Positions 2,903-61,612 of a stretch of DNA of 64,000 bases are shown piece by piece (position 1 is the first letter of the stretch; the number at the start of each line of letters is the position of its first letter). Source of the stretch: Naegleria gruberi. Taxonomy: Eukaryota. Below the pieces are notes generated by a model. That model saw nothing but the letters and a program-made list of their open reading frames with translations. It was not told where the DNA came from and searched no databases. Where the stretch lies: NCBI GenBank assembly GCA_000004985.1, contig GG738903.1; one strand, 5' to 3'. The translations under genes were made by a program, and so were the position numbers.

Positions 2903-3063
2903 GGAAATCCAAATCAGATTTCAAATCTTCCTCCTCATCATATTCATCATCAGCATCAGCATTATTTGTTGTAGTTGTTAAATTTTCATTATCATTCATT
3001 GAATTAAATCTAGTATTACTTAATAAATTTGATTTTTTTAAATATTTCCAAATTTTTTCAATA

Positions 3064-8400: not shown

Positions 8401-9760
8401 TTTTCTTTTAGATTGTTTAAATGCTTTACAATAAATATTATTATCAGTTACTATATTTGGAATTATTACATTCAATAATATTTCAGTAGGTAATATATTT
8501 AATTTTCTATATCCAATATATAAATCTCTAATTGAAATATTTCTAATTTCATTTGTTTTAATATTTAATAAATTTAATTTAGCATTTAAAGATTGCCAAA
8601 TTGGGACAAGATCTGAAATTGGTGAACCTGTCATTATATTACCACCAATAGATGCAACATTTCTAATTGGAGTAGATGCAAACCATTTACATTGATCTAA
8701 AATTGTTTTAATTTTTCTATTTTTAAATTCTAAATTACTTTCCATAAATGTATTTAAATATTCCATTAATTTTTGTATAGTAATACTTGAACCAATTAAT
8801 AATTCATTAGAATTTTCATTTAATTGTAAATTTAACATTTCATTAATATTTATTAATGATATAAAATGTGAATATTCTAAATTACGATGTTTAATTTCCA
8901 AACTAACTTCTGTATTTCCAATTATGTATTTAGGAATTATATTTTTAGAATTTAAATTTAATATTATATTTTTTAATTCATTTAAATTAATTGGTCTATA
9001 CCATTCAATATTATCATCTTTATATGATAAATATTTAAATTTATAATTTCTTAATTCAAATGGAAATAAATATTCTTTTTCATATTTAATTTCATTTATA
9101 TTATTATTAATATTATTATTAGTAATAGTATTATCATCATTGGATGGAGTTGGTTCAGTTGTTTTATTTTTAACTTTACAACAACCACCTTCTTTATTAC
9201 AATTACCACATCCATTACCATAAATAGAAGTATTATTATTAGTATCATTTATATTATCATTTAAATCATGATTATATTCATCAGATAAAGATATAGCCAT
9301 ATCTAAAATAGATCTATAACCAGTACATCTACATAAATTACCATCTAAAGATAATTCAATTTGTTTAATTGTAGGCTTTGAATAATTTCTTAATAAGGAA
9401 TATAAACTCATAATAATACCAGGTGTACAAAAACCACATTGTAAAGCATTAAATTAAACAACTTTACTTTTTAATAAAGTTAAAATTGAATCTTGTTTAA
9501 TACCTTCTATAGTAATAATAGAACATCCATCTAAATGTATTAATGGATATAAACAGGCATTAATAGAATAATTAATAATCTTATTTTGTAATGTATCATA
9601 TTTAGATAACATTACAATACAACTACCACATCCACCTTCTGAACAACCTATTTTAGTACCTGTTAATTTTAAATATTCTCTCAAATATTCTGCTAAATTT
9701 AATTTAATTAATAAATTATTTAATTTTAATTCAATACGTTCACCATTAACATAAAATAAT
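5452..9760 (-). CDS. xdh: Xanthine dehydrogenase/oxidase (molybdenum hydroxylase). The N-terminal 2Fe-2S region is 9454..9760, the FAD and Mo-cofactor core is 7132..9453, and the C-terminal segment is 5452..6069. The middle is interrupted by assembly gap 6088..7021.
   Basis: N-terminal 2Fe-2S motif 'VNGERIELK...LTGTKIGCSEGGCGSC'. Second 2Fe-2S and FAD region 'CGFCTPGIIMSLYSLLRN...GNLCRCTGYRSI'. C-terminal 'AIGEPPLQLACCVLFAIRNAI' matches the conserved XDH C-terminus. Asn-rich insertions are present. Confidence 0.8.
6088..7021. other. assembly gap (run of N)
   Basis: N characters in the sequence. Confidence 1.
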
Positions 9761-10362
9761 ATTTACTATTATTATTATTTGTATTATTATTTTCAAGTTG
9801 AACTTGATCATCATTAAAATTGAAAGTTAATGATGCTGATGATGATTTAATATCATTATTATTGATTATCATTCTCAAGTTGTTGATTTTTAAATGATGA
9901 TGGCGTTGAAGATTTGCGATTAATTGGAGAGAAAAAGTTACAGTAGTGTTGAGTTATTGTTTTTTTTCAACAGAGAACACGTGTGGTGGAGAGGCTCAAT
10001 ATTGTTGAATGGTTCATGGATTCTGAAATTGAGCGGAGCGGGTAGATCACAAACCATATTTGGCCGATCTATAGATATTTTTGCTCAACGTTTCCATTTC
10101 GGTAACACAAGGTTCATGGAATGAAAACACTTATTATCAAATTTATTATTAAAATCGTGGTTGAGAAGAATTGTAGTAAATCTTCCCTTAATAAATGCAG
10201 AGGTGAACCCATGTCTAAATTACCTGCTATTGGAGTTCAGGGATTAGACAAAAACTCGTAGTAGTTGTACATTATTGTAAAAGTATTTGAAACTGATTCG
10301 TACAACTGATCATGAACATGTATTGAACTTGTTGTTCCACATCAATTATTATAATAAAAAAA

Positions 10363-14555: not shown

Positions 14556-15759
14556 ATGGAAAGAGACAACATGCAACATTTTAACTTTACAAAGGAACTA
14601 ATGATGAAACATAGTAAGGTAATGGGATTGTCTTATCTCAAAAGTGTAGCATATCTATTCATTTTAGAGGCTTCTTTTACTGAAACTGACCTCTCTATAA
14701 TGCCTACATACTCTCTGTATTTTAAAGAATATTCCATGTCAGAGGAGATTGAAATATTAAAGTTATGGCTGGATATTGCTTTCTTCATTGAAAATCATGC
14801 ACCTAGGAGATCCACATTCACAGTGAAGCCATTTAGACCTAGCAGTAGTGAAACACCACTAAAAAACCTCAAGCTATTAGGAGGTGATGTGATGCTTTCA
14901 ACTAACACAGAAAAGAACAGAATAACATCCCACAGAAAGATGAAAAAATACAAGCCTATTATTTCTCGTGTGAAAAATCACCATGATATAGTCATTGTAA
15001 GGAATATCTCTGTATTCAAAGAAGTGGGTGAAGAAGAGAGAAGAATTATACTCAAATTAATGAACAGAGATGAATACTGTCTCTACTTGCCCATTGTACT
15101 AAATATATATGCTAAGGATGTGGAATTTGAACATCTCCACTCACTCCCTTCTGACCATTTAGATGATAACTTTTTGTTAATGATGGCCTGTCACATTTCC
15201 ATTGCATTGAAATACCTTCACGCCAACAACATTGTACATAGAGATGTGAAACCATCCAATACTATGATAAGACCATTCAATAATCCAACATCATTGTTAT
15301 GGATTGTATTGATAGACTTTGGTTTAAGCTTTGAAATGGTAAAAGAACAAGGTGAATGCTATCAATTAAGTAGCAGTGAAGGTAAGAAAACTCTGGTCAA
15401 TGAAAATGTTGGTACTTACCTTTTCCAAGCTCCAGAAGTTCATAAAAAGCAAAACTATGATGAAAAGATTGACATTTACAGTCTTGGGGCTACTTTATTG
15501 TATCTCAAAAACAAGACCTCATATGAAATAATCTGTAAAAAAGACGAATTTGATCTTCAAGTTGATATGCAAACACTCCAATGGGATGATTTTAAATTTG
15601 GGAAAAAATATTGGAAATGGTTAATGAAGATCCAAAGAAAAGACCTTCAGCTCAAGAGCTTGCCGATTATTTTACTACTCTTTACAACAACCCACAAACA
15701 ACAAACGCAGAAACTAAAGACCAAGAAGATTTCGAAATGCTTTATGATCAAGAAAGATA
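14556..15759 (+). CDS. Divergent protein kinase, possibly a pseudokinase, with a frameshift at an A6 homopolymer near 15608..15613. The conserved kinase C-terminus continues in the +2 frame to a TAA at ~15757..15759.
   Basis: Motifs 'HRDVKPSNTMI', 'DFGLSF', 'GTYLFQAPEV' and 'DIYSLGATLLYL' are present. After the shift the sequence reads '...LEMVNEDPKKRPSAQELADYF...', a typical kinase subdomain XI. The Gly-loop and VAIK Lys are not evident. Confidence 0.55.
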
Positions 15760-16439
15760 AGAAGGTTAGCAAACAAATTGAAGATATTGGAATAACATTT
15801 ATAACATTGCCTTATTGGAATGAATCCTGTTGGAATATTTTCAAATGGTAAAGGTGTCAAATCTTTCCAAAACTTTAAAACCAATTGAGACATTTGAAAG
15901 ATTGACAACTCTTTCTACCCAAAAATTCATAATTCCATTTGCAACTCTACTTCTTTTTTCCTTAATTCTCAAATCTTTTGCCAATCTTTGCAAAAATTGA
16001 GTTGACTTCTTTTTGATTTTCATAATCTTTTAAAATTTGTTTACAAAATCTTACAATGGATTGATCATATTTTACAAATAAATTATGGAAAATTTGATTA
16101 TTCTGAATAGATTGAGTGTAAATCTCCATTTCATATTTGAATTGTTCACTGAAAATTTTAAATTCCATTACAATTTCATACAATTTCATGATGATCAATT
16201 GATTGATCAATAATCAAGTTTAAATCTTGACCAATTCGTTCAAAATCACTTTCTCTAAACCAAACTCTTCCCAAATCTTTATCAGATTACAATAGAAACA
16301 CCTCCTTTATCAAATGGGTTTGATTATTCTACTAACCTGACACCTGATATTTCATTACCCAATTACAACAACGTGATCGGTATTATGTATTAATGAGAAG
16401 GAATTAAATAATATTTAAAATAAAAAAATGTCTGAAGAT

Positions 16440-17180
16440 TGGGTTTGTGTTTTGTGATGCGATTTTATTAATGGGTGTGATGACCATCACAAATAACAGG
16501 CCGATAGGACGTATGTGTTGGAAGCTGTTAAACAACGTGGAAATGCGCTTGAATATGTAGACGAATCATTTAAATAAAGCCGATAGAGAAATTGTGTTGG
16601 AAGCTGTTAAACAAAATGGATGAGCACTTGAATATGTTGATTCATCATTTAAAAAAGATAGAGAATTTGTATTGGAAGCTGTAAAACATAATGGATGAGC
16701 ACTTTAATATGTTGATTCATCATTGAAAAAAGATAGAGAAATTGTATTGGAAGCTGTTAAACATAATGGATCAGCACTTAAATATGCTGATTCATTATTG
16801 AAAAGAGATAGAGAAATTGTATTGGAATCTGTTAAACATAATGGATCAGCACTTAAATATGTTGATTCTTCATTGAAAAAAGATAGAGAAATTGTATTGG
16901 AATCTGTTAAACAAAATGGATCAGCACTTCAATATGCTGATTTATTATTGAAAAAAGATAGAGAAATTGTATTGGAAGCTGTTAAACAAGATGGATTGGC
17001 ACTTGAATATGCTTATTTTCAAAATGACAGAGAAATTGTATTGGAATCTGTTAAACAAAATGGATCAGCACTTGTATATGCTGATTCATTATTTAAAAGA
17101 GATAGAGAAATTGTATTGGAAGCTGTTAAACAACATGAATTGGCACTTGAATATGCTGATTCATCTTTACAAAGAGATAT
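16440..17180 (+). repeat. Tandem array of about seven 102-bp (34-aa) DUF4116-like repeats. The 5'-most copies (16440..16720) carry in-frame TGA and TAA stops and a frameshift.
   Basis: Repeats read '...DREIVLE(A/S)VK(H/Q)NGSAL(K/Q/E)YADSLLKK'. Copies are near-identical at the nucleotide level. The upstream copies read 'ggatgagcac' where the intact copies read 'ggatcagcac'. Confidence 0.8.
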
Positions 17181-18981
17181 CATTTTTATATATTCACTTG
17201 TTAAATTGAACAAAGAAAATACAAGAAGCTTCTCACCCTCTATAACCAAAACCATTGAAGAAGCCAACATTAATCTTCAGAGAAAGCTGTCAAGCAATAT
17301 AATTGAACAGCAATACTCCAAAATATTTATGGATGAAAAGGATTTATATTATGCTATTGAATTAACAAGTCTCTTTAATCCAACACCAAAAGGTACAATA
17401 TTCAATTTCAATTCTATCTATACACCAATATTTGTTGAAAAGTTGATTATTTTCCAAATATTGAAACGAATGAACCATTCAGAATTATCCACTGAAACTC
17501 TTCTTTCAGCCAACTATTATTTATTTTGTTTCAGATTGGACAAATTTCTTGAAGATAATCCTTCTCAATCAACAAGAATGAAAGATTTGAAGAATATTGT
17601 GGAACAAGTTGCAACAAATTTTGAAACATTATTTTATACAAAACAGGAAATTAATGAAATTATGATTTTTTCCAACAAGTGGTTTGAAAATGAGCAAACA
17701 TTTGAGAATTACAAACAAATAGTGTGTAAATATAACGAGGTGAGAGGAGATTTATCAAAAGTATTCAAAGCTCTCAATTATTTCTATAATTATTTCAAAT
17801 ATAATTATGATTTCATTTCAGTATTAGGATATGGAGGTGAAGGTGTTGCATTTAAAGTATTTCATAAAAGTAGTAAATCATTAAGGGCATTAAAATTAAA
17901 ATATGACCCAGAGGAATCTGAAGAATCAACAAAAGAAACCATTAATTTATTGAAAAGAACAGATATTGAAGGAAAGATCAAATGTTTTGATTGTGAAATT
18001 ATTCAAAATCATTTATATTCAGTGATGGAACTTGGAGAGGAATCATTATCAAATTATATTTATAGAAATAATCAAGATGGAATTTATAGAAATGGATTCA
18101 TTAAGAAGGAAAAGTTGATTGAAATTCTTGAAATATTTATCAAAGTATTAAACTCAGTCAAATCAATTCATGATCACAATATTTTACACAGAGATTTAGA
18201 TCCTCAAAATATTGTCAAAGTTCAAGATTTATACAAAATAATTGATTTTGAAACATCAAGAGTTATCAAGACAGGTAATTCAATTACAATTGCTCGTGGA
18301 AAGTTTGCATACATGTCTCCTGAAGTTTCACATGATAATTATTCTGATGATTTATTGAAAAGTGGTAATGATGAAAAGCTTGCTCACAATGTTGGACAAA
18401 TTACCATTTCATGTGATATATTCTCTTTGGGATGTATTTTATTGAAATTATTGACAAATTGTCCATTACAATTATGTTCAACATTTGTTAATGATTCAGC
18501 CATCTCTAAATATAATGATAATTATCCATATTTTAGTGGGCATGGAAAATATTTCTATACAGTTGTAACAAATACTGAGGGAGAAATGAAATTACATTAT
18601 GCAATTGAAAAACTAATCAATGAAACCATTAATCCAGATTTAGGAGTGAACAGCATATTAATTAGAAGCATTATTAGCATGATTCAAAGAGAGTCATCAA
18701 AAAGATTAGATTGTTATTCTCACAAGTTAACAATTGAGAATATTTTGAAATTTTTGAAAGATGAAATCAAAGATATCACTTTGAATATTGAAAAACAAGT
18801 TGGCGAATTGAAGAAAATCTCACCATTAAGAAGTTACTCTCAACTTGCAGAGGAAGTTGATAAACTTGCAGAGGAAAACACCAACCTATATAAACTTTTG
18901 GATGAAAACACCAGGGAAAATAGCAACCTATTAGAAAGAATTAAAATGTTGGAAGAAGAAATAAGAAAACTCAAACAATAA
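16723..18981 (+). CDS. Protein kinase with an N-terminal array of DUF4116-like 34-aa repeats and a C-terminal coiled-coil. The true start is uncertain: no in-frame ATG for ~200 codons, and the ORF-track start is a TTG.
   Basis: Kinase motifs 'GYGGEGVAFKV', 'LHRDLDPQNIV', 'DFETSRV' and 'YMSPEV'. Terminal heptad-like 'LAEEVDKLAEENTNLYKLLDENTRENSNLLERIKMLEEEIRKLKQ'. Confidence 0.7.
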   Translation: MKKDREIVLEAVKHNGSALKYADSLLKRDREIVLESVKHNGSALKYVDSSLKKDREIVLESVKQNGSALQYADLLLKKDREIVLEAVKQDGLALEYAYFQNDREIVLESVKQNGSALVYADSLFKRDREIVLEAVKQHELALEYADSSLQRDIIFIYSLVKLNKENTRSFSPSITKTIEEANINLQRKLSSNIIEQQYSKIFMDEKDLYYAIELTSLFNPTPKGTIFNFNSIYTPIFVEKLIIFQILKRMNHSELSTETLLSANYYLFCFRLDKFLEDNPSQSTRMKDLKNIVEQVATNFETLFYTKQEINEIMIFSNKWFENEQTFENYKQIVCKYNEVRGDLSKVFKALNYFYNYFKYNYDFISVLGYGGEGVAFKVFHKSSKSLRALKLKYDPEESEESTKETINLLKRTDIEGKIKCFDCEIIQNHLYSVMELGEESLSNYIYRNNQDGIYRNGFIKKEKLIEILEIFIKVLNSVKSIHDHNILHRDLDPQNIVKVQDLYKIIDFETSRVIKTGNSITIARGKFAYMSPEVSHDNYSDDLLKSGNDEKLAHNVGQITISCDIFSLGCILLKLLTNCPLQLCSTFVNDSAISKYNDNYPYFSGHGKYFYTVVTNTEGEMKLHYAIEKLINETINPDLGVNSILIRSIISMIQRESSKRLDCYSHKLTIENILKFLKDEIKDITLNIEKQVGELKKISPLRSYSQLAEEVDKLAEENTNLYKLLDENTRENSNLLERIKMLEEEIRKLKQ

Positions 18982-37637: not shown

Positions 37638-39887
37638 ATGGGCAACTTCTTTCCTTCAGTAACGCTTGAACCACAACAGAAAACTGAACTGGAATCAAAG
37701 TTGAAAAGAAAAATAGATTCTGTTGGTGCCTATCCTGTAAGGAGTCCCAAGAAAAAGGTTCATACAAAATCCGAAACAAAGAAATATCTTCCATCTGATA
37801 TACTTCAGTTTTTTGATATTCCCTTAGTCAACAGGGAAATAGCCTGCAGAAACCTGATGGACAGCTTAATAGAACAAAAAAGCTCAGCGAACCATGGACT
37901 GCTCCCTATTTTGAGCCAGCATTATGGTAGTGGGAAAACTCGTCTTTTAAGAGAGTTTCGACAAGCTTTAAAGGAGAGGAATGATCTTGAGCAATTTACC
38001 TGCTGCGAGTCTGAAACTTCATCAGCAGTAGCAAATAATATTATGCAAGCAGTTCTTGTGGATATGCCTTTAAATAGGGCAACATTAACAAATTCTATAG
38101 AAAAGGACTTGCAATTTCCATTGGGTGGTATAAGTCGTCTCTTTTTATTAAGGCTAAAGACATCTATAGAAGAACATGCAGCAATTTCAAAGGATCCTCT
38201 TGTTTCTAAAACGATGAATGTTTTACGGTATGTGGGTGCGTGTACATACAATCATGTTTCTGATCTTTCGTTTGAAGAAAAAGATATTATTACAGAATTG
38301 AGCTTTTGCTCTGATTGGATGCAGTTTCTTCAATTTTATTCTCGTAATAGACTTTACCCAATATTAATTCTAATAGACGAAGCTTCATATCTAGAGTACC
38401 ATTATAAGGATGGCCATGTGTCCTTTGTTTATCTTTGGGAAAAAGTAATCAAACCTACAATGGGATCATCTTCTCCAGGAATTTACTTTGTGGCTTGTGG
38501 GACATCTTCAACTCTTACGAAACTGGGAAGAGGATTGTTAAGAAACGAAACTAAACTGATTTCTCCCACAAACGCAATTCATATCACGTTAGAAATGTTA
38601 AAAGAAGAGCATATTATGGAGATTTTCGAGAAAGTAATTATATCTAAGGATGGAAAACTTAATGTTAGGCAATTTACTTCTATTTTTTGTAATATTGGAA
38701 ACAACTATGAATACTTTTGCAAAACAGTTTTTTGGTTTACTATGGGTGTTCCAAGATTGGTGCTGTACGTTCTCTCATCTTTAACGCGACATGTTAAAAG
38801 CAATGGACCATTAGATTTCAGCACGAGAGGAAAGATTGACGATGTTTTCAATAACTTTGAAGCAGGTCCAGAGCTTTCACTTGTGAAAACAGCAAAAGAA
38901 ATTTTCCCATTTAATGAATGTACTTCTACTAAGGACAATTTATCTCGCTTTCGTTCAATATTAACAATGGGAGTGTTGAGATTTCCAATTCCTGTAACAG
39001 AGGAGTTTTTGACTGAAATAGACCTTATCCATGATCTTAACGTAGCCGTGGAAACACCAACTATCAATATTGATGGAAAACCAACAGTCATGATCAAAAT
39101 GTTCATTCCAAGGTTTACATTGATTAAGGCAGCCAAGCAAGAAAGCTTGCAACATTTATCTGTCCTAGCTTCTCTTCCTTCCAATTACTACAGATACATA
39201 GACAAGGTCGACTTGCTTGAACAACTATTTCATGACACAATACTAACTAGAGTTTTGGTAACCATCAAATTTTCAAACGCAACGAGATGGCAAAACATCC
39301 ACTCAATATTCTCTCATTCACAGTTTCTAACAGACAAAAAGGTTGAAAGGGAACATGAATTGTTTATGACCACCTCTGTTTTAGGACCCCCAGCTCCTAA
39401 ATCCAAAAGCCCAGGTTTTTTGATATCTGTTCCTGAAGGCAATAGTATAATTGGTATTGCATGTAAAACCAACATGTTTTCATCAATATTTAGTCTAAAA
39501 ATGCTTCAAGACGAAATAGATAAGGCCAGTTTGCTTGAAAAAAACATTACACTTTTTGTTTTTGCCAGACAGTTGACTGCTGAACTAGTTCAGTCTTGTA
39601 AAGATTTAGGGTACTTAAAGTTGACAGAAGGGAAGTGGTCATTTGGTTCCGGCTTAAGTTGCTCAAAGCTAACCACACCTCCAACAGGTGTATGGGCCAA
39701 AGGACTCAAATTTATTGAGAAGACCATAAATGTTTACAAAAACATGGAGGTTATTATATTGGGGAATGATTTGTTCAGTTCATTCTTTACGAAAGAGGAT
39801 ATTGAGCTCCTGACAGAAATTTCTACTGCAAAAACTTATCCAAAAATGGGACTGGTAGAAAATTGGGTTCAATCATTAATTCAATAG
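37638..39887 (+). CDS. N-myristoylated P-loop NTPase of unknown family (749 aa).
   Basis: N-terminus 'MGNFFPS' (Gly2/Ser6). Walker A 'QHYGSGKTRLL'. Walker B-like 'PILILIDEASYLEY'. Confidence 0.55.
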   Translation: MGNFFPSVTLEPQQKTELESKLKRKIDSVGAYPVRSPKKKVHTKSETKKYLPSDILQFFDIPLVNREIACRNLMDSLIEQKSSANHGLLPILSQHYGSGKTRLLREFRQALKERNDLEQFTCCESETSSAVANNIMQAVLVDMPLNRATLTNSIEKDLQFPLGGISRLFLLRLKTSIEEHAAISKDPLVSKTMNVLRYVGACTYNHVSDLSFEEKDIITELSFCSDWMQFLQFYSRNRLYPILILIDEASYLEYHYKDGHVSFVYLWEKVIKPTMGSSSPGIYFVACGTSSTLTKLGRGLLRNETKLISPTNAIHITLEMLKEEHIMEIFEKVIISKDGKLNVRQFTSIFCNIGNNYEYFCKTVFWFTMGVPRLVLYVLSSLTRHVKSNGPLDFSTRGKIDDVFNNFEAGPELSLVKTAKEIFPFNECTSTKDNLSRFRSILTMGVLRFPIPVTEEFLTEIDLIHDLNVAVETPTINIDGKPTVMIKMFIPRFTLIKAAKQESLQHLSVLASLPSNYYRYIDKVDLLEQLFHDTILTRVLVTIKFSNATRWQNIHSIFSHSQFLTDKKVEREHELFMTTSVLGPPAPKSKSPGFLISVPEGNSIIGIACKTNMFSSIFSLKMLQDEIDKASLLEKNITLFVFARQLTAELVQSCKDLGYLKLTEGKWSFGSGLSCSKLTTPPTGVWAKGLKFIEKTINVYKNMEVIILGNDLFSSFFTKEDIELLTEISTAKTYPKMGLVENWVQSLIQ

Positions 39888-39974: not shown

Positions 39975-40899
39975 TTAAACATTGTAATCAAAATGAATTG
40001 GATGTTCATCTCCATCACTTGCAGCATTAATTACAGTAACACCATTTTGTATCTTTTCATATCCATAACCCATGTGGACATGACCAAAACAATTTACCTT
40101 TAAATCTTTCAATTCATTCATTCTGGTCATCAATGAAGGACTTCCATATTTCAAAATTCCATCTAAATGACCCTTTGGTGGTGTATGGGTCACTAGAATA
40201 TTTGTATCTGGATCAATAGTAGCAAAAATCTCTGCAAGCTTTTCCTCACTTCTATAAAAATAATCATTGTCGAATTGACACATGTATTCCTTCTTTTCTC
40301 CAGGTAAATCTGACATATTTGGAATATATGGAGTTCCATAAATTTTAACACCTTCAATTACAACACTGCTATTTTCAAGATAAATAGCATTAGAAAATAA
40401 TTCTTGAATCTTTTCCTTTCCAAGTTTAGAAATATCCACTTCATGATTACCTAATTACAATCATTTCAATAATGTTACAAAATATTTAAATCAAATTATT
40501 AAACAAATATTAAACAAACATACCACAAATAACAATCTTGTGTTTGTAAGGAAGTGTTCCAACCCATTGATTAAACTTTTCAATATCCTCCAATTTTCCC
40601 TCATCAGTCATATCACCACAATGAATAAATACATCACCCTCTGGTAATTGCAGCATATCATGTTTGTTGTGTGTATCACTTATAATTACAAATTTTAATA
40701 CCTTTTTTCCTTCAGAGGTAGGTTGTGGATGAACAATTTCCCATTCAATCTTTTTTGGAGCCTTGATCGCTTCTTGTTCTCTTCGGGATGAGAGTTTCTT
40801 CATCAATTCATCGGAATTAGATGTTGTAGATGATGAAAGTATTTTGGTTGTAGGAGCTTTAACAGCAATGAATGAAGTAGGTGGAGGTGGTGGAGGCAT
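39975..40899 (-). CDS. Calcineurin-like metallophosphoesterase. Two exons: 40524..40899 and 39975..40450. The intron is 40451..40523 (73 nt, GTATGT..TAG).
   Basis: Motifs 'VIISDTHN', 'IHCGDMTDEG', 'ICG|NHE' reconstituted across the intron, 'VTHTPPKG' and 'FGHVHMGYG'. N-terminal 'MPPPPPP'. Confidence 0.75.
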
Positions 40900-41049: not shown

Positions 41050-43413
41050 TTACAATATGATATCTATTGCACTCTCTTCTTTTAGTGAAATGTATTTTGG
41101 AATCAGTTTTTGCATTTCTTTTTCTAGTTCTGTTGTGAATTCTCTATTGTTTTTCAGCTCGTTTGAAGCAAATTTGAGAGTATATGGTATTTCCAATACC
41201 GCAGCAGTTACAATCTGCTTATCGTTTCTCAATTCCTCTGAGGCAAACTTGAGAGCATTTCCATTTTTAGAGATGGCTGCTAGTACTACTTGCCTATCAT
41301 TTTTCAGTTCCTCTGAGACATACTCGAGGTTTAATCCATTTTGTTGTACTTTTTGTAATGCTAATTCTCTATTATCTATTATTGATAGTGGTTGAGAGGA
41401 AAATACAAATGGTAAAATATAAGTAAATGGTTTTTTGAAAATGAGAATGTCGCCATCTTGTTTCAGTTCTTCAGATGCAAATCTAAAGGAAGAGCCATTG
41501 TTTTGAACTGCCTTCATAACAACCTCTTTGTCATTTCTCAATCTATCCGATGCATATTCAAGAACAATTCCATCCAGTTGAACTGCAGCTAGAACAATAT
41601 CCCTATCGTCCCTTAGTTCTTCTGTGCAGTGTTGTAAAGCTATTGGATTATTTTTAACTGCTTCCATAGCAATAATCTTGTTTCCTTTAAAAGATGTTCC
41701 ACAAAATTTAAGAGAATTTCCATTTTTTCTAATGGCCAAGCTAACTATTTCTAAATCATTCCTTAAAGCCTTACATGCATACCCAAGATTGTTACCGTCT
41801 CTTTTAATAGCTTCTGTAACAATATGACGATCTTTCTTCAATTCCTCAGATGCATAACTAAATGATCCACCATCGGTATTCATTGCCTCTATTATTACAT
41901 CCTTATCATTTCTCAAATTTTCACATGAATAATATAGAGCATTACCATAATTCTTCACTGCTTTCAAGACCATTTCCTTATCATTGTTGAAATGAGGAAT
42001 GCAACATAGTGCTTGTCCTTTTAATTCCATTATTTTTAACATGAATTCTCTATTATTCTTCAATTCTTCAGAGGTCAGTGATAGATTTTTAATTGCATCC
42101 TGAGGTTCACTCATCAATGCAACTTGATAAATGATTTGCTGATCATTCAAAAGTTTAGTAGAGGCATACATAATAGCGTTTGAATTTTGAGTAATAGCCT
42201 CCATTACAATTTCAAAATCATTTCTAAAAGAGAGTGCATATTCAAGAGACATGCCATTTTGTTTTACACACCCTAAAACAAGTTCTTTCTCTATCAAAAA
42301 GTCCTCTGGTGATACAAATTGAAGATTGAGGCCATTCTTTTCACATACATACGAAACAACACTCTTACTATTTTTAAATGGGTGTTTTAAATTTTGAAAA
42401 CAATCAACCAAGCTAGTAACTTTGCCATTCAAATTATCAAACATCACCTGAAATATATTTTCAATAGAATATCTATTGTCTTCGTGAATACATGTCATTC
42501 CTTTACATAAGTCCTTAATTACAATCCATGAAGAAGGATCATTCTCAAATTCGCTAATAGTGGTAGTAGTATTAGTAATAATATTTTGGAATAATGTTTC
42601 GATATCATTCCACAATTCTTCTTGTTGATATTTTAATTGTAAGTGAAATCGATCTAGAAATAGAAATGATAGAATAGTAATACCCAGACTAAAAATATCA
42701 CATTTGCAGGAACATTTTCCATTAAGGATTTCTGGAGCAATAAACCCAATTGTACCAGCAAAACCTGTAGCAGAAGAGTAACAGGAGCTAGTACAATCAT
42801 CAACCAATTGCTCATTATTTTCCTCATTTAACAATAACATATCATCTAAATTATTTTCTGCCATTGTGGCACATCCTAAATCTCCCAACACTATCATTCC
42901 CTCCTCACTCATAAAAATATTTTCCGGTTTAACATCTCTGTGAATGATATGATTCAGTGATAGGGATTGCAAAGCTCCACAACACTGCACAATGATTTGT
43001 AATACCATTAAAATTGAAACTCTTTCCAAGTTTTTTCTCACATCACGCAAATTATTTCCTCTAAATTTAGATATAATAACATATTCTCGTAAGGTTATAG
43101 AGGCTTCATCATCATCATTATAATTATTAAAAGTTTTCATCGATAAAACATTGGCATGATTTGTGTGTTTATACTTTTGCAAATACTCGCTTCTGGTTTC
43201 TCCAGTCTCAAGTAAACCTGAATCATCATGAATAATTTTAAAAACCATCAATGATTGATCGCTCATCTTTCTACACTTGTAAACCCATGTTGTTGGATTT
43301 CGGTAAATTTCTGCTATGGGAAAATAGTATTCACCTTGAAATTCAAAACTTGTTCCATTGTTGTTATTATGGAAAAGAAGCGAAGAAATGGTGGACTGAA
43401 GAGATTTGGTCAT
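41050..43413 (-). CDS. Protein kinase (N-terminal) followed by about 12 DUF4116-like repeats. The domain order is inverted relative to the 16723 gene.
   Basis: Kinase motifs 'HRDVKPENIF', 'LGDLGCA' and 'GFIAPEIL'. Repeats such as 'VVLAAISKNGNALKFASEELRNDKQIV'. Confidence 0.7.
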   Translation of the reverse strand: MTKSLQSTISSLLFHNNNNGTSFEFQGEYYFPIAEIYRNPTTWVYKCRKMSDQSLMVFKIIHDDSGLLETGETRSEYLQKYKHTNHANVLSMKTFNNYNDDDEASITLREYVIISKFRGNNLRDVRKNLERVSILMVLQIIVQCCGALQSLSLNHIIHRDVKPENIFMSEEGMIVLGDLGCATMAENNLDDMLLLNEENNEQLVDDCTSSCYSSATGFAGTIGFIAPEILNGKCSCKCDIFSLGITILSFLFLDRFHLQLKYQQEELWNDIETLFQNIITNTTTTISEFENDPSSWIVIKDLCKGMTCIHEDNRYSIENIFQVMFDNLNGKVTSLVDCFQNLKHPFKNSKSVVSYVCEKNGLNLQFVSPEDFLIEKELVLGCVKQNGMSLEYALSFRNDFEIVMEAITQNSNAIMYASTKLLNDQQIIYQVALMSEPQDAIKNLSLTSEELKNNREFMLKIMELKGQALCCIPHFNNDKEMVLKAVKNYGNALYYSCENLRNDKDVIIEAMNTDGGSFSYASEELKKDRHIVTEAIKRDGNNLGYACKALRNDLEIVSLAIRKNGNSLKFCGTSFKGNKIIAMEAVKNNPIALQHCTEELRDDRDIVLAAVQLDGIVLEYASDRLRNDKEVVMKAVQNNGSSFRFASEELKQDGDILIFKKPFTYILPFVFSSQPLSIIDNRELALQKVQQNGLNLEYVSEELKNDRQVVLAAISKNGNALKFASEELRNDKQIVTAAVLEIPYTLKFASNELKNNREFTTELEKEMQKLIPKYISLKEESAIDIIL

Positions 43414-43757: not shown

Positions 43758-45311
43758 ATGTTCAAGTTTAAACGAAACAATTCTTCGACTAAACTTGAGG
43801 ATATCCACTTGATTTATGAGTTTCCTTTGGAGGCTATATTCGATGTTCCCGAAGCCAAGGAAGAATTTCGTGCCTATCTAAAGAGGGAACACAATGAAGA
43901 ACCTCTTTTGTTTTATGAGGAAGTTGAAGATTTTAAACGACTTAAATTTGAAGAGAATAAGACAAAGAAGGCATTATTCATACTAAAGACTTATGTCATG
44001 CCGAACAGCAGTCATGAAATTAATATATCATCACAATATAGACAGAATATCGTGTTAGGATTTGAAAAATCAGGTCAACTGACTTCAGAAAAGAATATGT
44101 TGGTTGATGAAACTATTTTTGATGATTCACAAAGTGCTATTTTCTATAATTTGAAGAATGACACTTATCCTAGGTTTACCAAATCTGTTCAATTTAACAA
44201 TTTCCTTAAACAAAAGGATGAAGCATTTATTACATCAATTTCTGTACTGAAAAACACAAAATATATGGAGTATATTCCAAAATTTGATGGATTGGTTTGT
44301 GATAGAGATATTCAATTCTTTTCATTCATGGCTTTTAATGATGATGAGGAAGTTTGGGATGAAATTAAAGTTGGAGCAAGTGGTAGAAGAGCTTGTTATC
44401 AATCCAAAAAGGAATTCAACATTGATGAAAATGAGGAAAAAGCAAATGGTAAACTGTTAAAGCAAGTTTTCATTTTACCATGTTCCAAGGAACAAGCTTT
44501 TAATATGTTTTCTCATACTCAAGTTAGACAGGATATTCTAGATGCAGAGAGTATTAATCAGTTAGATTACATTCCAATATCAAAAACAAATAAGTATGCA
44601 CAATCTATTCTCAAGATTGTTATTCAAATGACAGGTTTAACTTGGGTAATGAAACCTAGACAAGCAGTTGTGGCTGGTACTGTAGTTAAAGATACAAAGA
44701 GAAACTGTATTGCTAATATTATGAAGTCAACCAACTCTGTCCTTCTTCCTGAAAAGAAGTCACATGTTAAAGCGAGAGTACTTTCTTCCAGCTTCTTTGT
44801 AGATTGCTACACCACAACACATCTAAATAAGCTCAAAGATCCACCCCACACAAACCATAGTATGAGTTCTGGAGATTTGAGAAAATCAACCTCATCAGCA
44901 TCATCTACTTCCTCCTTTTCAAGAAAAAGCTCAGTAGCATTTGATGACAGCTTGTCTGATATGAGTACTGAATCATTTGGACCAATTGAAAATGCTTGCA
45001 AAGTAATTTGTGTTTCCTACATTGACTTACAATCAATGCAATCTGATTTTATAAGGAAAAAGTTTTTTAATGCGAAAAACAAGGCAGCCCATACAGTATT
45101 TATGAATTCTGTAAAGGAATTTGGAGCTTTAAATTTCCCTAAACCTAAATTCAGTGAGGGACTATATGACACCTTAGATGCTTTTACTTCACACTATACT
45201 ACTGGTGATAATGACACTGTTATGACCTGGGATTTGGAAGAAGAAGAAGAGGGTAATATGTATCCGTGTTATCCAGCCAACGCTGGATTGAAAGGATTTT
45301 GTCAGATGTGA
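43758..45311 (+). CDS. RGS-domain protein. The last 20 codons and the TGA stop are supplied by the left terminal inverted repeat of an inserted MITE. The inferred original C-terminus is '...WDLEEEEQSLHEIITSQLKI'.
   Basis: RGS-like region 'FRAYLKREHNEEPLLFYEEVEDFK...ALFILKTYVMPNSSHEINISSQ'. Confidence 0.65.
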   Translation: MFKFKRNNSSTKLEDIHLIYEFPLEAIFDVPEAKEEFRAYLKREHNEEPLLFYEEVEDFKRLKFEENKTKKALFILKTYVMPNSSHEINISSQYRQNIVLGFEKSGQLTSEKNMLVDETIFDDSQSAIFYNLKNDTYPRFTKSVQFNNFLKQKDEAFITSISVLKNTKYMEYIPKFDGLVCDRDIQFFSFMAFNDDEEVWDEIKVGASGRRACYQSKKEFNIDENEEKANGKLLKQVFILPCSKEQAFNMFSHTQVRQDILDAESINQLDYIPISKTNKYAQSILKIVIQMTGLTWVMKPRQAVVAGTVVKDTKRNCIANIMKSTNSVLLPEKKSHVKARVLSSSFFVDCYTTTHLNKLKDPPHTNHSMSSGDLRKSTSSASSTSSFSRKSSVAFDDSLSDMSTESFGPIENACKVICVSYIDLQSMQSDFIRKKFFNAKNKAAHTVFMNSVKEFGALNFPKPKFSEGLYDTLDAFTSHYTTGDNDTVMTWDLEEEEEGNMYPCYPANAGLKGFCQM

Positions 45312-54005: not shown

Positions 54006-57000
54006 TTACTTCTTTTTTTTAAATTCTGCAAGTAAAGAATGCGAAAGAACATCCTGAGCTTGAGGCCTTGTTAAATTATCCTTTTCAAGCATGCTCAATA
54101 CTAAATCGATAATTTCGTTCGAATATCTTTCCACCAATGTCTTTCTCAGCATTTGCACAACTTCTTTCTCATCTCTATGTCCATACAATTCGGAGATTGA
54201 CGTGGTTATGTCTTTGGTCATGATCTGATACATAACTACTCCCAAACTAAAGATATCTGCATTAAAGTAGTGTTTGTATACAGACACTATTTCTGGAGAT
54301 GAAAAGATTGGATTTACTTTCGTTCCAAAAACTCCATATCCAAAATCTGAAATTAATGCATGAATATTATCGTTATCCAAACTCTTGATGAGTAAATTGG
54401 AATGTTTGATGTTTGCATGAATGCATTTTTCAACACAATGTGAATATTCCAAACCTGTACATATTTGAAAAATGATCTGTTTCACTAACTTTTCAGAAAC
54501 ATTAAAGTTTCGATTAGTCAACTTGCTGAAATCACCCATTTCGAAATAATCCATATCAATGCAAATCTTTTGATCTATTGTACTCACGAAAATCTCATTA
54601 ATTTTACAAATATTTGGATTGGTAGTATTCAGTAGATGAACGGCTTGATTAAGGAATTTGTTCACATCTTCCTCAGATTTGTATTTGACAATTTTGATTG
54701 CTTTTGAACAATTCTTGACAGAATCGATTACTTTAAAGACATTTCCACTTCCAATTCTTGCAATATTGGTATATCTCAAGTGAGGATTGAATTCAGCACT
54801 GATGAAGGCATTTTCTAATTGGAAACTGTAACCACTGCTTGGTTTTAAGTAATATGCTTGAGTTGGAAGATTATCATAGACTAATTCAATATCTCCAGAG
54901 TTGATAGTAGCAACATTGGAAAGAGTTTCCGTTCTTGGTTGTTTCTTTTTCATTCTCCAAACAATGCAAATCAAGAGAATGATAACAATAATGATAATTA
55001 GAATAACAACAAATGCAACTGGAACTGCAATAGCTGCTGCAAGAGCACCTGTATCCATTCCTTGTTGAGCATTATCAGGATTTCTGTTATTACTCAATTC
55101 GGAAATTGGTGAAGATGGTTCTGTAACTATTGGAGGAATTGCTGGGTTGATAATATATGGTAATTCTTGAATGGTGAATAAACTGAGGTGGGATACTTGA
55201 CATTCTAAATCAAAATATAACAAGTCTCCATTTCGTTTTGTTATAGTTACAGAGCTGCTAATTCCTGATTGAGACCAACTTTTCGAATTATCAAGAAAGA
55301 CGCAGGATGCATTGATACCAGTCTTGTTAGCTGTAACAAGTCCTTCAAATTTGAAAATAATAGGATCTGCCAGATTGTCAACCTTCACTCCATTTCCATT
55401 CTTGTCATAAATTGACAAATCCAAAGATGGCCTCACTGAAAGAATATTTCCATCATTGGTGTCATTGGTAATCATTGTTAAGGCATAGAAAATCATAGAT
55501 TTTGATCCTAAATTTTGAACTTGTTCTGAAAATTTGCTTGGGAAGGTAATTTTCACATTCAACAAATCTTTGGAAATGGAAACTGATTTGGAATTGAATT
55601 GTTTTTCAAGTTGAAGGATTTGAGTGGAGATTAATCCATCAGAGGAGGATTTTCCTGTGAGTTTGTAGTAATCTAAATGATACTTGGCTAATTCTCCTTG
55701 CTTTGTTGCGTTATTGGAAAAAGTGTTCGAAAGAATGGTCATTAAACTTGAAATTTCATCAAAGTTCTTTGAATCTAACAGAGTTTTGTAAACATTGGAG
55801 GAATAATAGGAACGTGCTTGATTCATAGAAGCGAATATCCAGTCCATCCACCAAACTATTTCAGAACTAGTTGAAACTGAGAACTTTTCTAATAGATTAA
55901 AGATAGTCGAAATTGAAGGCAGAATTAATTGAACAATCTTTTCATCAGCGTTGTAGCTTAATGAAGGAATATCTTTCAGAGCACTCAACATATCAATAAG
56001 AATGGAAACTGCTTCTCTCTTTGCATCTTGTGAGATTATTCTTTCGGCGACATTATTCAAAGTTTCGTCTTGAGTAATTAATGATATTAAGGCATTTACA
56101 GAATTAATTGTATCTACAGTCAGTGGTTTGGATTGTCTCAGTGCAGCAAATTCATTACTGACATAATTAATTCTAGAAAGAAGTGAATTATTCGAAATAT
56201 CAATTTTTTCTGGCAATAGAGATGGCAAGTTATTTCTAAATTCACTCACAGTTCCAAATTCATTGATCATTTTCACAACCAAAACTAAACTTTGTTGATT
56301 GAAGAATGGTAAGTGAGTCACAATTGTATTTTTCAAACTATTCGAAAGGACAAATAATCTTTCATTTTGTGAGTGAACTTCCATTACAATACTAGAAATG
56401 GAATCTTGTGGAAGTGTTAAACAACTAATAGAAACCAAAGTTTCATGAGCAATAATATCCCTTTCGTTTTTCACTGTTTCTAATAAACAAGTAAATCTTG
56501 GTTTCATATCGATTCTAGTAGAAAGTGTCAACTTGGAAGAGCCATCTGTATTTGTAGTTTCCAATTCAAATTCGTAAAATTCACCTTCAATAAGATATTC
56601 TTTTCCAATATTAAGGTAAACTTCTAGGGAGTTTCCAACAAGAATATTAGAAACTGTGAAAAGTTCAAGATTTGGAGAATTTCTCAATTTTCCATTCAAG
56701 ACTTTCCAATTCAAAGTAACTAAACTTTCAGATTCGACCACACAATATAACGAAAGATTCTTTCCTTCTGGATATACTGATGGAATGTAATCTGGTGTTA
56801 ACTTAGGAACAGAAGTGGCAGAGTTGACCAATTCAATGTAACCAAAATAGGAGAAGGTACTTTCCGCTGTCGTAACATTGGTTCCTATCAAATAGATACC
56901 TTCAAAGAATCCAAGAGAATTAAAATCCGTTTCTAATTGGCAAGATGTTCCTTGACATAAATTATTCGAAACATCCATAATTGACTTGTCTAAAGTTCTG

Positions 57001-60000
57001 TAACAATACCAAGAATAAGATTTTGTAATAGAAGAAACGAAAGGATCATCACTTTCTAATGCAATTGTTAACTTTCCTGAATTTAGAGAAATAGTTCTGT
57101 TAACATTAGTTAATCTCAAGTCAATTGAATTGATTGGTGACTTTTTGATAGGATAGTCGATATTTAGAGTTGATTTAGATTCCCTATGCGTACCTATTAC
57201 CTTAAAAGTTGACAAATTTTCTTGTGGAATTCTTATCATTTGCTTATTAGAAAGCTCTGTATTTATCATTCCAGATACATCATACGAAAGTGAAGTATTT
57301 AATGACAGAGGAGATACTTCAAATAAACAATTATATCCTTTACATTCAAGATTATCAATCAAAACATTAAAGGAAGGAATAAGTTGTCCTTCTGGGTTGA
57401 CTTGAAGATTTTTAACACTTGAAGTCGAAATATACTTCTCATTAGTCGTATTCATCACAATATCGAATACATTCGGAATATCTTTCAATATACTCTTTGG
57501 AATACTAATAACTGTCTTGTTTGCATAATTGACCAAGGTGGAAGAAACAGTTTCAATGGAGGAAGACCAAATTTGAGAAATTTTCTTGAAATGATGATAT
57601 GAAGGTGGAATGTATGATCTGATAATCAAGTCCTGAGAGGATGGAATCAAATCTACGAGTTGCTGAATGGATGGAGTGGAAGGAGTTTGAGGAATTTCAA
57701 AGTCAACTTGGAGTTGAATTCCAAATGTTGTCTTGATAATTGAACCAGTTTCAATTAGATGATTATATCCTAAATAAATCTTGAGATTATTTCTTCTCCA
57801 TTGACATTTAAGCAAGTCAACTTGACCAAATTTGGAAATATCATTTTCTTGAATGAAATTTTCACATCCTTCAACTACAGATTCATTCAAAAACATGTTC
57901 AATACATTAGAATAGGAATAAATTATAGCATTATCAACATCCATTTGAACACTGAGATATTGACATTCATTTCCAACGAAACCTTTCAAACATTCACAAT
58001 TGTTTGGAGATTTACATTGGCCATTACCTGAACATACATTTGAATCAATTTCTGACTTGGAATAGCAAACATTGTATTGACAGTTTCCTCCTGTGAATCC
58101 AGTTTTGCATGAGCATTCGTCTGGTTTCAGACATTTACCCTTTCCAGAACAAACACTTTCGTTATTCGAAAGAACTCCATTACATTTGGCCAGAGAACAT
58201 TCTAAACCGTTCCAACCATTATTACATGTGCAATTATTGTAACTAGAGCATTTGCCATGACCAGAGCAAACATTTGGCATGTCAAAAGTCAGAGAATAAC
58301 ATTTGATTTTGTCACATTTGTCTCCACCCCATTCTTCTGAGCAAGTACAAGTACCACTAGTTAAGCATTGATAACCATTTTGACAAATGCTCTTATTAAC
58401 CCTTGAACAATTGAAAATGTCACAATCCAAACCAAAATAACCCAATTGACATTCACAAACATCTGGAGATTGACATGTGCCAGAAGCAGAGCAAACAGAT
58501 TGATTCAAACTTGATACACCAAAACAATCAAATAAATCACATAAACTTCCTCCATATCCTGAATCACATTTACAAATAGCAATTCCAGTTTCGTTTAAAC
58601 AAGTTCCATTTACACATTGTAAAGTACATGGATTTGGAATTTCACAATTGTATCCATAGTGGCTTGATTTACATGCACAAGTGTCTTTGTCTGTACAATT
58701 ACCGTGACCAGAACAAACTGTAGAGTTGAGTGAATTCACTCCATAACAGTTGAATTTTTCACATTCTTTTCCATAGTAACCTTCTTGACATGTGCAGTTA
58801 TCAAGTGATGAGCAGATTCCTCTTGATGAACAAACTGAAAGTGAGTCTTGAGCCTTTCCATAACAATCAAATTTTTCACAATTTTGTCCATAGTAAGGTT
58901 TTGTACAATTACATGTATCGATATTGGAACAATTACCATGTGATGAACAAACATCCTTCTTATCATTTCTTACACTGAAACAATCATAATACTGACAACT
59001 TTCTCCATAGAAACCTTGTTGACAAGAACAATTATTCAATGAGAGACACACTCCTTTTCCAGAACACACATTCGAATTGAGTGAGCTAACATTATAGCAA
59101 TTAAACTTTTCACACTCTTTGCCATAATAACCTTCCTTGCATGTGCAGTTATCAAGAGAAGAGCAGATACCTCTTGCTGAACAAACATCTCCCATATCAT
59201 TTCTGATACTAAAACAATCATAATATTGGCATCTTTCTCCATAGAAACCTTGTTGACAGGTACAGTTATTCAGGGAGACACAAACTCCCTTTCCAGAACA
59301 AACAGTTGAGTTGAGTGAGGAAACATTATAGCAGTTGAATTTTTCACATTCTTTTCCATAATAACCTTCTTGACATGTACAATTATCAAGTGATGAGCAG
59401 ATTCCTCTTGAAGAACAAACTGAAAGTGAGTCTTGAGCCTTTCCATAACAATCAAATTTTTCACAATTTTGTCCATAATAAGGTTTTGTACAATTACAAG
59501 TGTCAATATTTGTGCAATTACCATGTGATGAACAAACATCTCTCTTATCTTTTCTAACACCATAGCAATCGAATAATTCACAATTGCTTCCATAAAACCC
59601 TTGTTGGCAGGTACAATTGTTAGCAGAAACGCAACTTCCTTTTCCTGAACAAACTGTAGAGTTGAGTGAATTCACTCCATAACAGTTGAATTTTTCACAT
59701 TCTTTTCCATAATATCCTTCTTGACATGTGCAGTTATCAAGTGATGAGCAGAATCCTCTTGAAGAACAAACTGAAATCGAATCTTGAGCCTTTCCATAAC
59801 AATCAAATTTTTCACAGTTTGTTCCATAGTAAGGTTTTGTACAATTACATGTATCGATATTGGAACAATTACCATGTGATGAACAAACATCCTTCTTATC
59901 ATTTCTTACACTGAAACAATCGTAATACTGACACTTTTCTCCATAGAAACCTTGTTGACATGTACAATTATTCAATGAGAGACAAACTCCCTTTCCTGAG

Positions 60001-61612
60001 CAAACATTCAAACTAGTGTTCTTGACACCAAAGCAAGAAACTAATTCACAGTTACTTCCATGATATCCTTCAGAGCATGAACAATTGTTAGGAGAAACAC
60101 ATCGACCTTTCGAATAGGAACAAACTTCTGGACTAGTGGCCAAAATATTCGAACATTTAGGAACGTTACAATTGGAACCACCATACATTTCGGTACAGTT
60201 ACAAACTCCAGGTGCTAGACAATTTCCATTTCCTGAACATACGCTTGGAGAATTTGCCAAAACATTTCCACATTTGTGAATGTCACAATTTTGACCTCCC
60301 CAAAAAGTTGAATTCCAACATGAGCAATTATTTGCATAGACACATGTACCAATTCCAGAACAAACACTAGTATCATTAGCCATTATATTATTACATTTAG
60401 GAATTTCACAAAATTCTCCTCCCCAAAGTGAACTATTGAAACAATTACAAATGTCAAAATTCAAACAAACACCTCTTCCAGAACAGACATCTCCACTATA
60501 TTGGGGATAACCGAAACATACAGCTACACATTCATTCATAGTAGCATTGTATACATAACCTCCTGTGCAATAAGGTTCAATTTTTCTAATACGGAGATTA
60601 CCAGTATCTTTTTCAAAGTATTCGAAATATAAATTCTTCACTACTACTTACCAAGAATAAAAATATGACCTTCTGAACTAACATCCACATCATAGGTATT
60701 ATTCATCTTTACCAAATCACTTCCAGGAGTTTTAGCAACGCCTGAAAATAATGAAATTGTAGCTAAATTTTGGGTACCAGTAGTTCCATAAGAAAATTTC
60801 ACAACACGAACAACATGATTTCCTCTGTCAGCAATGTAAAGATCCTTGTTGGGTCCATAAGCAACTCCAGTAGGTGCGTTATACAAGGCATTGAATGCAC
60901 TGCCATCGGCATAACCAGCAGACCCAACACCTAAATAGGAAGTAGCTCCAGAGCCTGTCCTAATTAAACGATGAGTACCTGGTTCAGCAAAAGTCATTTC
61001 AGTACTAGAAAAGGCTGCGACTCCAGCGGATAGAGAACCTTGTACAATAAGTTGCTGAGTAGAGATGAAATTATTAGCTTTCGTATACTTTCTAACTCTG
61101 TAATTCAATGAATCTGAAAAGTAAATATTGCCATTTGGAAGTGAGGTAACATATTTCGGCTGATTTAGGTATGCATTTGTAGGGAGGGTATTCAAATCAT
61201 TGGCAACACCAGAAACTCCACATTTTCCAATAATTGTTTTAATCTGTCCATTGCTTACTTCTCTAATGACATGATTTAAAGTGTCAGCAATCAATAACTT
61301 TCCTTCTGATGTAACACATATACCACCTGGATAATTCAGCATGGCACCTGTAGCTGTAGTATTAGTGTCGTTTCCAGCAATTCCAGTTCCTGCCACGATT
61401 GTTACTTTCAATGTTGTCAAATCTAATCTTTTCACAAGGTGGTTTTTGGAATCTGAAATGAAAAGTTCATTATTATTACCAACAGCAATTCCTTCAGGAG
61501 AGTTGAAACCTTGTAGGTAGATGTGAGTGATGTTGTACAGAGGTGCAATAGAGTTGACTAAACTCAAGTGCAATAGTATTAGAAACAAGACGAAAGTAAT
61601 GAGTCTTGCCAT
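54006..61612 (-). CDS. Probable single receptor-kinase gene encoding signal peptide, NHL-repeat beta-propeller, about 40 tenascin-type EGF repeats, a TM helix and a protein kinase. Proposed exon 1 is 60652..61612 and exon 2 is 54006..60607, with a 44-nt intron at 60608..60651 (GTAAGT..AAG). Alternatively the two ORFs are joined by a 1-nt assembly indel.
   Basis: Exon 1 has signal peptide 'MARLITFVLFLILLHLSLVNS' and NHL units such as 'LYIADRGNHVVRVV'. It ends at '...FILG' followed by a GTAAGT donor. The big ORF begins with no signal peptide ('...DTGNLRIRKIEPYC') and its ORF-track start is a GTG. TM segment 'ALAAAIAVPVAFVVILIIIIVIILLICIVW'. Kinase motifs 'AIKIVK', 'IKHSNLLI', 'SDFGYG' and 'SPEI'. 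Confidence 0.7.

Follow-up and report, generated by a model that had tools for sequence, protein, structure and literature searches.

A kinase-first DUF4116 gene of Naegleria gruberi, probably a fusion separate from a nearby repeats-first locus

We analysed a 64,000-nucleotide stretch of Naegleria gruberi contig GG738903.1 (the window), in which a gene at positions 41050..43413 of the minus strand (gene A) encodes a soluble, kinase-first protein of two modules, probably with a partner-binding solenoid and an origin by fusion separate from that of the comparison locus at 16723 (gene B). The first module is a divergent eukaryotic Ser/Thr-type protein kinase domain covering about aa 20-330. A flexible linker of roughly 20 residues ties this domain to a predicted 400-residue DUF4116 solenoid of 16 three-helix units. 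Gene B would be a recently disabled copy of a larger, repeats-first family.

The reading frame of gene A, taken from the ORF listing, is an uninterrupted single-exon CDS of 787 codons plus stop, and its DNA is 32% GC. The GC content of coding DNA in the window is about 30-35%. GenBank carries the gene as NAEGRDRAFT_59370, named in UniProt "Protein kinase domain-containing protein" (738 aa), and the product (P0002) is 100% identical to our translation from Met50 onwards. Gene A is a genuine gene, catalogued already though unstudied: no experiment or paper on these proteins or on DUF4116 came up in the literature searched for the Naegleria kinome, the repeat family and the locus tag. As the earlier note on this DNA had described, the kinase is N-terminal and the repeats follow, with the Pfam Pkinase domain (PF00069) matching aa 44-322 at 91.7 bits (cut-off 31.7) and the DUF4116 array occupying aa 351-754. 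Motif positions, the AF2 model and Foldseek extend the kinase domain to about aa 20-330 (42424..43356, minus strand).

The GenBank model starts 49 codons downstream of Met1 and omits a stretch (43267..43413, minus strand) that encodes the opening strands of the kinase and its degenerate glycine loop. P0198, the closest homolog, matches aa 13-205 of gene A at 42% identity and so covers part of these codons. Residues F23, V44, K46 and C47 are kept in a three-way alignment of gene A, P0198 and the N. gruberi paralog P0128, and AF2 places strands at 23-25, 35-38 and 42-49 within the omitted N-terminus. An ORF called on an ENA contig (P0191) begins at the same Met1. The 49 codons upstream of Met50 are very likely coding, and because they align, are conserved and are modelled as N-lobe strands, the GenBank start truncates the kinase domain, and NAEGRDRAFT_59370 is annotated from the wrong start.

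The repeat half of gene A matches Pfam DUF4116 (PF13475) in 11 stretches with 461.9 bits against a cut-off of 24.9 (E 4.5e-142). The Pfam model is 49 aa long and spans two real units of about 25 aa. An HMM of the 25-aa unit recovers 15 in-frame units on the minus strand (41152-42366), and a 16th, degenerate unit lies among them; Pfam, the unit HMM and AF2 together delimit the array at 41152..42363. The earlier estimate of about 12 copies is thus fair in Pfam terms, the real count being 16 units of about 25 aa. Labels for SpoVR_C, AfsA, DIX and ATAD3_N were rejected as sub-threshold overlaps on the repeats, with zero stretches passing on their own. Any two units share 29% identity on average, and at the DNA level Tandem Repeats Finder (TRF) detects no repeat; the repeats of gene A are evidently old.

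In the AF2 model each unit folds into three successive helices, the first of 10 residues, the second of 6 and the third of 4. The repeat region was modelled separately, since Foldseek with the full-length model returned kinases only. Alone it reaches a mean pLDDT of 91 and a pTM of 0.71, with the units stacked into an alpha-solenoid. The top fold matches of this model are ARM/HEAT alpha-solenoids. Members of that group, such as importin-alpha and the PP2A A subunit, likewise stack short helices into a superhelix, and ARM units have three helices as DUF4116 units do. The gene A array has neither the profile match nor the strong structural match of an ARM/HEAT member. The predicted solenoid is a confident model with no close solved counterpart.

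The unit HMM misses one unit of the array, the degenerate and hydrophobic A13 (aa 652-679; 41377..41460, minus strand), which AF2 models at a pLDDT of 38-51. It interrupts the solenoid, with low model confidence, three units before the array ends, and P0128 has a matching unit at that place. Excising A13 would restore the perfect periodicity of the array. We rejected A13 as an unspliced intron, given that the only GT..AG span is 31-40 nt long and out of frame and that P0128 carries the matching unit. After the array comes a C-terminal tail of 33 residues (aa 755-787; 41053..41151, minus strand) with a long capping helix (AF2 helices 757-776 and 780-786). At the other end, AF2 places the flexible linker at aa 331-350 (42364..42423, minus strand), and pLDDT falls below 50 over residues 340-361 of the full-length model. 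That model has a pTM of 0.52 and no confident contact between kinase and solenoid, so autoregulation of the kinase would be speculative.

The absence of a transmembrane segment from both proteins, as claimed in the earlier note, agrees with our hydropathy windows, on which the call rests. The highest 19-residue windows score 1.77 and 1.79 in genes A and B and fall on buried kinase helices; in gene A the peak spans aa 132-150 and gives no sign of a receptor or membrane-anchored kinase. Both products look soluble. The description of the two as cytosolic signalling proteins stands as far as solubility goes. Gene B is broken near its 5' end and lacks an annotated product, and no functional link between A and B was found.

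The kinase domain of gene A holds a full set of catalytic residues: Lys59, Glu76, the catalytic loop HRDVKPEN (158-165, with His158-Arg-Asp160, Lys162 and Asn165), DLG (178-180, with Asp178) and APE (226-228). Glu76 was assigned as the alphaC Glu from the AF2 helix 74-82. The ATP-binding loop, which lies between strands 35-38 and 42-49, reads EIYRNPTTW; it has lost all three glycines of the GxGxxG motif and contains a proline. AF2 models the N-lobe at low confidence (pLDDT 46-77) and predicts a disordered, low-pLDDT insert in the activation segment (aa 198-216). The fold is that of a generic kinase, and Foldseek with the full-length model matched CaMKII, Pho85, PAK and Aurora.

The glycine-free loop makes catalytic activity uncertain, and we considered whether gene A encodes a pseudokinase, in which the kinase fold, no longer transferring phosphate, would act next to the solenoid as another module for docking or allostery. 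A glycine-free, proline-bearing ATP loop is a common mark of pseudokinases, the N-lobe is poorly modelled as noted above, and P0128 has HHD in place of HRD. We nevertheless regard this alternative as rather unlikely, because every catalytic residue listed above is kept in gene A and these residues are conserved in a homolog of about 40% identity, the pattern of an enzyme under selection. The ATP loops of P0198 and P0128 likewise have no glycine in the three-way alignment, so the loss appears to be a conserved lineage trait and not decay. All three proteins keep the beta3 Lys, the His/Asp/Lys/Asn of the catalytic loop, D[LF]G and the Pro-Glu of APE, so that among the residues of a competent kinase only the Arg of HRD and the Ala of APE vary; the catalytic loop has HRD in gene A and P0198 and HHD in P0128. 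Since its two closest relatives also have no loop glycines, gene A would be part of a small lineage, itself conserved, whose nucleotide pocket is unusual, and its kinase is more likely active than dead.

Sequence matches of the kinase to solved structures are weak and spread over families: PERK reaches 1.4e-11 and NEK7 1.7e-10, CDPK and Aurora lie at about 3e-10 to 5e-9, and with GCN2 included the range extends to 6e-9. NEK6 and NEK7, among the best of these matches (E about 1e-10), have LGDLG where most kinases would carry DFG, as gene A does, and being active kinases they also weigh against reading DLG as a sign of a dead enzyme. However, the similarity to gene A is weak and limited to aa 79-183, NEKs have a normal glycine loop, and PERK, CDPK and Aurora match as well as NEK7 does; membership of gene A among the NEKs would be tentative. 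When 1.8 billion representative proteins were searched exhaustively with HMMER, the only matches better than E 1e-30 were gene A itself, its fragment and one multi-kinase fusion model. This isolation among 1.8 billion sequences is a further point for the pseudokinase alternative. The best true single-domain relative in that search was P0198. Top full-sequence matches were rejected as close relatives, being gene models with several fused kinase domains. Searching with a three-sequence kinase profile for kinase-first relatives returned generic PASTA, polo-like and other kinases, with 0 carrying DUF4116 and 0 named as Naegleria. Protein database searches likewise found no named ortholog of gene A in N. 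fowleri or N. lovaniensis, so that constraint on gene A is read from one partial homolog and one distant paralog, a point against the reading that we favour.

Gene B is organised in the opposite order, as the earlier note had stated, with repeats at aa 3-149 and the kinase at aa 356-660 of the ORF 16723..18981 (plus strand). The first of these regions contains six near-identical 25-aa units. The listed ORF begins with TTG, a start codon only under the bacterial code of the ORF tool, and the repeats extend upstream of 16723 in the same frame with stop codons inside. We place the 5' end at an ATG at 16428, from which MSEDW is encoded, followed by a 57-nt GT..AG intron (16443-16499) and then ADRTYVLEAVKQRGNALEYVDESFK; the spliced start, MSEDW joined to ADRTYVLEAVKQRGNALEYVDESFK, matches the N-terminus of the paralog P0075. 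The gene thus delimited runs from 16428 to 18981 on the plus strand and includes a 75-nt tandem array at 16514-17179 (TRF: period 75, 8.9 copies, 87% matches). Its units share 73% mean identity in amino acids and 87% in nucleotides, and these repeats are evidently young.

Four lesions interrupt the 5' part of gene B between 16575 and 16707 (plus strand). A 1-nt insertion at 16575 creates a TAA and a frameshift, and three further stops follow (TGA 16621, TGA 16696 and TAA 16705). TGA 16696 lies exactly one repeat unit after TGA 16621, and some units of the paralog P0072 have Trp, presumably TGG, where gene B has TGA. The next in-frame ATG is at 17329, beyond the repeats, and the database holds no protein identical (100%) to gene B and no annotated product. 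We rejected rescue by alternative splicing, judged by eye only, as no repeat-frame codon ends in AG and there is no in-frame acceptor for a phase-0 exon. Gene B is probably a recent pseudogene. Downstream, 752 codons stay open, and a repeat-less product may be made from Met203. The paralog model P0076 starts at the position equivalent to Met203.

The kinase domain of gene B (17788..18702, plus strand) was delimited by Pfam and by a phmmer envelope of 356-660. Its motifs, read from the sequence, are a GYGGEG loop, ALK, HRDLDPQN, DFE and SPE, so that the glycine loop is normal and the catalytic loop HRDLDPQN unusual. The alignment of the two kinase domains proposed in the earlier note did not make the one a version of the other: their BLASTP identity is 20% over 123 residues, and phmmer scores the best domain at about 15 bits. 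In our pooled comparison set more than 200 kinases, nearly all without DUF4116, outscore kinase B against kinase A. The score of kinase A is 90.7 bits with P0198 and 49.8 bits with P0128 but 11-16 bits with the repeats-first proteins P0072-P0081 and P0097, which score 280-630 bits against kinase B. On these kinase scores gene A falls outside the repeats-first kinase family. The two repeat sets do align; a unit HMM built from gene B only finds gene A units at E 1e-5 to 3e-7, and mean identity between A and B units is 35%. The earlier note had named two observations that would count against it, kinases of unrelated families and repeats that do not align to each other; the kinases do belong to different subfamilies, but the repeats align. 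Judged on sequence, then, genes A and B carry kinases of different subfamilies and would not be one gene rearranged.

A local duplication of one DUF4116-kinase gene, followed by a swap of domain order, would explain why genes A and B, which lie 22 kb from each other on opposite strands, share both Pfam families and why their repeats align. We give this scenario almost no credence. The score of about 15 bits between the kinases speaks against it, as does the contrast between the old repeats of gene A (29% between units) and the young ones of gene B (73% in amino acids, 87% in nucleotides). Five paralogs on another scaffold, of 573 kb, are moreover 83-92% identical to gene B, so gene B would have come by recent dispersed duplication. 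The local-duplication scenario appears already contradicted, and separate fusions remain our preferred reading of the two genes.

The combination of DUF4116 and kinase had been presented as rare, with genes A and B as its two domain-order variants. The opposite orders are real, but the rarity is not: at least 14 annotated N. gruberi proteins carry DUF4116 with a kinase, and both orders occur among them. Repeats-first proteins comprise at least 11 annotated in N. gruberi (P0072-P0081 and P0097) and 3 in N. lovaniensis (P0113, P0140 and P0090). P0113 and P0140 have the kinase type of gene B, and P0090 has a different kinase. The kinase-first order is found in P0128 and P0167 of N. gruberi, in P0115 of Cladocopium and in six proteins from ENA assemblies (metagenomic). 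Beyond these fusions, DUF4116 is seen by itself or combined with ankyrin, F-box, PARP, BRCT, LRR and protease domains, and in bacteria too, for example Mycoplasmopsis and Anoxychlamydiales. Both orders thus appear, with different kinases, in Naegleria, Cladocopium and metagenomes, which argues that DUF4116 is a mobile repeat module, apparently attached on several occasions to different kinase lineages, at one end or the other, and not that genes A and B are two variants of one gene.

Within this set the architecture of gene A recurs in N. gruberi NAEGRDRAFT_53795 (XP_002670086, the P0128 of the alignments above) and NAEGRDRAFT_66990. On Logan contig L001, a kinase 40-42% identical to that of gene A (P0198) is followed directly by DUF4116 units up to the contig end. 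P0128 and P0198 share with gene A the kinase placed before DUF4116, the glycine-free ATP loop, a V[YF]KC strand and D[LF]G, and P0128 has its degenerate unit three units from the array end, as gene A has. Aligned with gene A from end to end, P0128 is 27% identical; it carries HHD and DFG in place of the HRD and DLG of gene A, P0198 having DLG. Gene A thus appears to belong to a kinase-first lineage with NAEGRDRAFT_53795 and the L001 relative. The repeats-first Naegleria kinases resemble gene A in their two Pfam families, their solubility and their alignable 25-aa units. They differ in the opposite order, in a GxGxxG loop, HRDLDPQN and DFE, in a spacer of roughly 200 aa, in a coiled-coil-like C-terminal tail and in their young, near-identical repeats.

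The DUF4116 solenoid of gene A would provide a protein-binding surface that recruits substrates or partners, localises the kinase or restrains it. HEAT, ARM, ankyrin, LRR and TPR arrays target or regulate other kinases. By analogy, LRRK2/ROCO kinases, ILK, TOR and bacterial TPR- or PD40-linked Ser/Thr kinases all have a kinase tethered to a long partner-binding or regulatory array, whereas the DUF4116 repeat type is unrelated to any of those arrays. Bacterial TPR- or PD40-linked Ser/Thr kinases were among the database matches of gene A.

More tentatively, gene A, NAEGRDRAFT_53795 and the L001 homolog could constitute a small undescribed kinase lineage with a glycine-free loop and a conserved core, permanently tethered to a solenoid of 25-residue three-helix units without a solved counterpart. 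If active, such kinases would bind nucleotide in an unusual way, and if this reading is true DUF4116 would be a new recognition scaffold recruited independently by kinases of several protist lineages. DUF4116 is abundant in protists, in some bacteria living with protists and in metagenomes, yet it carries neither an assigned function nor a solved structure. That it has been fused repeatedly to different kinases, before or after the kinase domain, hints at a general protein-binding module, and the DUF4116 kinases are a reasonable entry point to what it binds, though the practical value is modest. The analysis also corrects the start of NAEGRDRAFT_59370, recasts the 16723 locus as a probable disrupted copy and turns the supposed rare linked pair into what appear to be two unrelated members of a lineage-expanded set.

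Gene A is transcribed divergently from an RGS-domain gene (ORF 43758-45311, identical to N. gruberi NEG-M XP_002671667 on a 304-kb scaffold). A further five ORFs of the window are likewise identical to N. gruberi proteins encoded on that scaffold. Between genes A and B the earlier note had placed a myristoylated NTPase and a phosphoesterase. Loosely this holds, in that the ORF at 37638-39887 begins MGNFFPS and carries GSGKT and a two-exon ORF lies at 39975-40899, but the former has no Pfam match and the Metallophos match of the latter (Pfam) is weak. One could read genes A and B, together with what lies between them, as a signalling neighbourhood with linked functions, in which kinase, phosphoesterase, P-loop and RGS proteins would be under common regulation. 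The metallophosphoesterase-like gene does flank gene A, with the RGS-domain gene diverging from it, and four kinase genes lie among unrelated genes in the 64-kb window. We find such a neighbourhood highly unlikely nonetheless, because gene B is broken and the intervening genes are mixed, among them Hsp70, a DHHC palmitoyltransferase, an ABC transporter, a lipase-EGF protein and several proteins that match no domain; the neighbourhood also has an EGF-repeat receptor kinase. Naegleria is not known for operon-like gene clusters, and a functional link between the two loci is unsupported.

We also estimated how often DUF4116-kinase loci would fall close together by chance. The N. gruberi genome is roughly 41 Mb. 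With about 15 loci in ~41 Mb, one given locus has a ~2% chance of having another within 25 kb, and about 0.1 pairs within 25 kb would be expected genome-wide; the estimate is post hoc, and these figures are suggestive at most. Given that the kinases are unrelated, that gene B looks like a dispersed copy of a cluster elsewhere and that the neighbourhood is mixed, the 22-kb spacing of A and B is most likely a coincidence. As a last observation on the window, the 70-nt GT..AG gap between the two phosphoesterase ORFs is an intron, and another short intron, of 57 nt, is that of gene B.

The GenBank model of the kinase-first DUF4116 gene (gene A, ORF 41050-43413, minus strand), NAEGRDRAFT_59370, begins at Met50. 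Because the 49 codons upstream of this methionine (43267-43413, minus strand) are conserved in one homolog and are modelled as strands of the kinase N-lobe, the annotation has probably placed the start incorrectly. Gene A's closest relative is encoded at positions 2650-3721 of a Logan contig (L001, SRR25266766) with a GC content of 33%. Midway through the kinase, the reading frame of this relative changes, reflecting either an intron or an assembly error, and its DUF4116 units start shortly before the contig ends.

DUF4116 arrays are also found in bacteria (P0093, P0159, P0168 and P0174), in taxa including Anoxychlamydiales, Mycoplasmopsis and Saganbacteria, which hints that the module has been exchanged between protists and their associated microbes.

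We also examined the 5' end (16428-17329) of gene B, the repeats-first kinase, whose listed ORF spans 16723-18981 (plus strand). Upstream of this ORF, the gene has a proper start codon (ATG) and an intron of 57 nt. Repeat units 1-3 are disrupted by one frameshift as well as by three stop codons, of which two are separated by exactly 75 nt, and downstream of the lesions 752 codons are still open. Gene B either has recently become a pseudogene or is now read from Met203 (ATG at 17329).

Genes A and B are two of the four kinase genes in the window, together with ORF 14556-15851 and a 2211-aa ORF at 54006-60641 (minus strand). The product of the latter is a receptor-like kinase, in which numerous EGF repeats of the teneurin type are combined with a protein kinase domain at the C-terminus.

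Two further genes lie between genes B and A. The 'myristoylated NTPase' of the earlier note corresponds to NAEGRDRAFT_52686 (37638-39887, plus strand), annotated merely as 'predicted protein'; its product begins with MGNFFPS, contains GSGKT and matches no Pfam family. The phosphoesterase adjoining gene A (39975-40899, minus strand) has a weak Metallophos match (E 8e-4) and consists of two ORFs, the 70-nt gap between them probably being an intron.

Finally, the window contains two assembly gaps (runs of N at 3064-3642 and 6088-7021). Between and after them, the sequence at 3643-10000 has a GC content of 16-23%, compared to about 32% elsewhere; the region may be unusual, or there may be a problem with the scaffolding. 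An ORF without an exact counterpart in the protein collection, xanthine-dehydrogenase-like and of 20% GC, is still contained in this region at 7132-9411 (minus strand).
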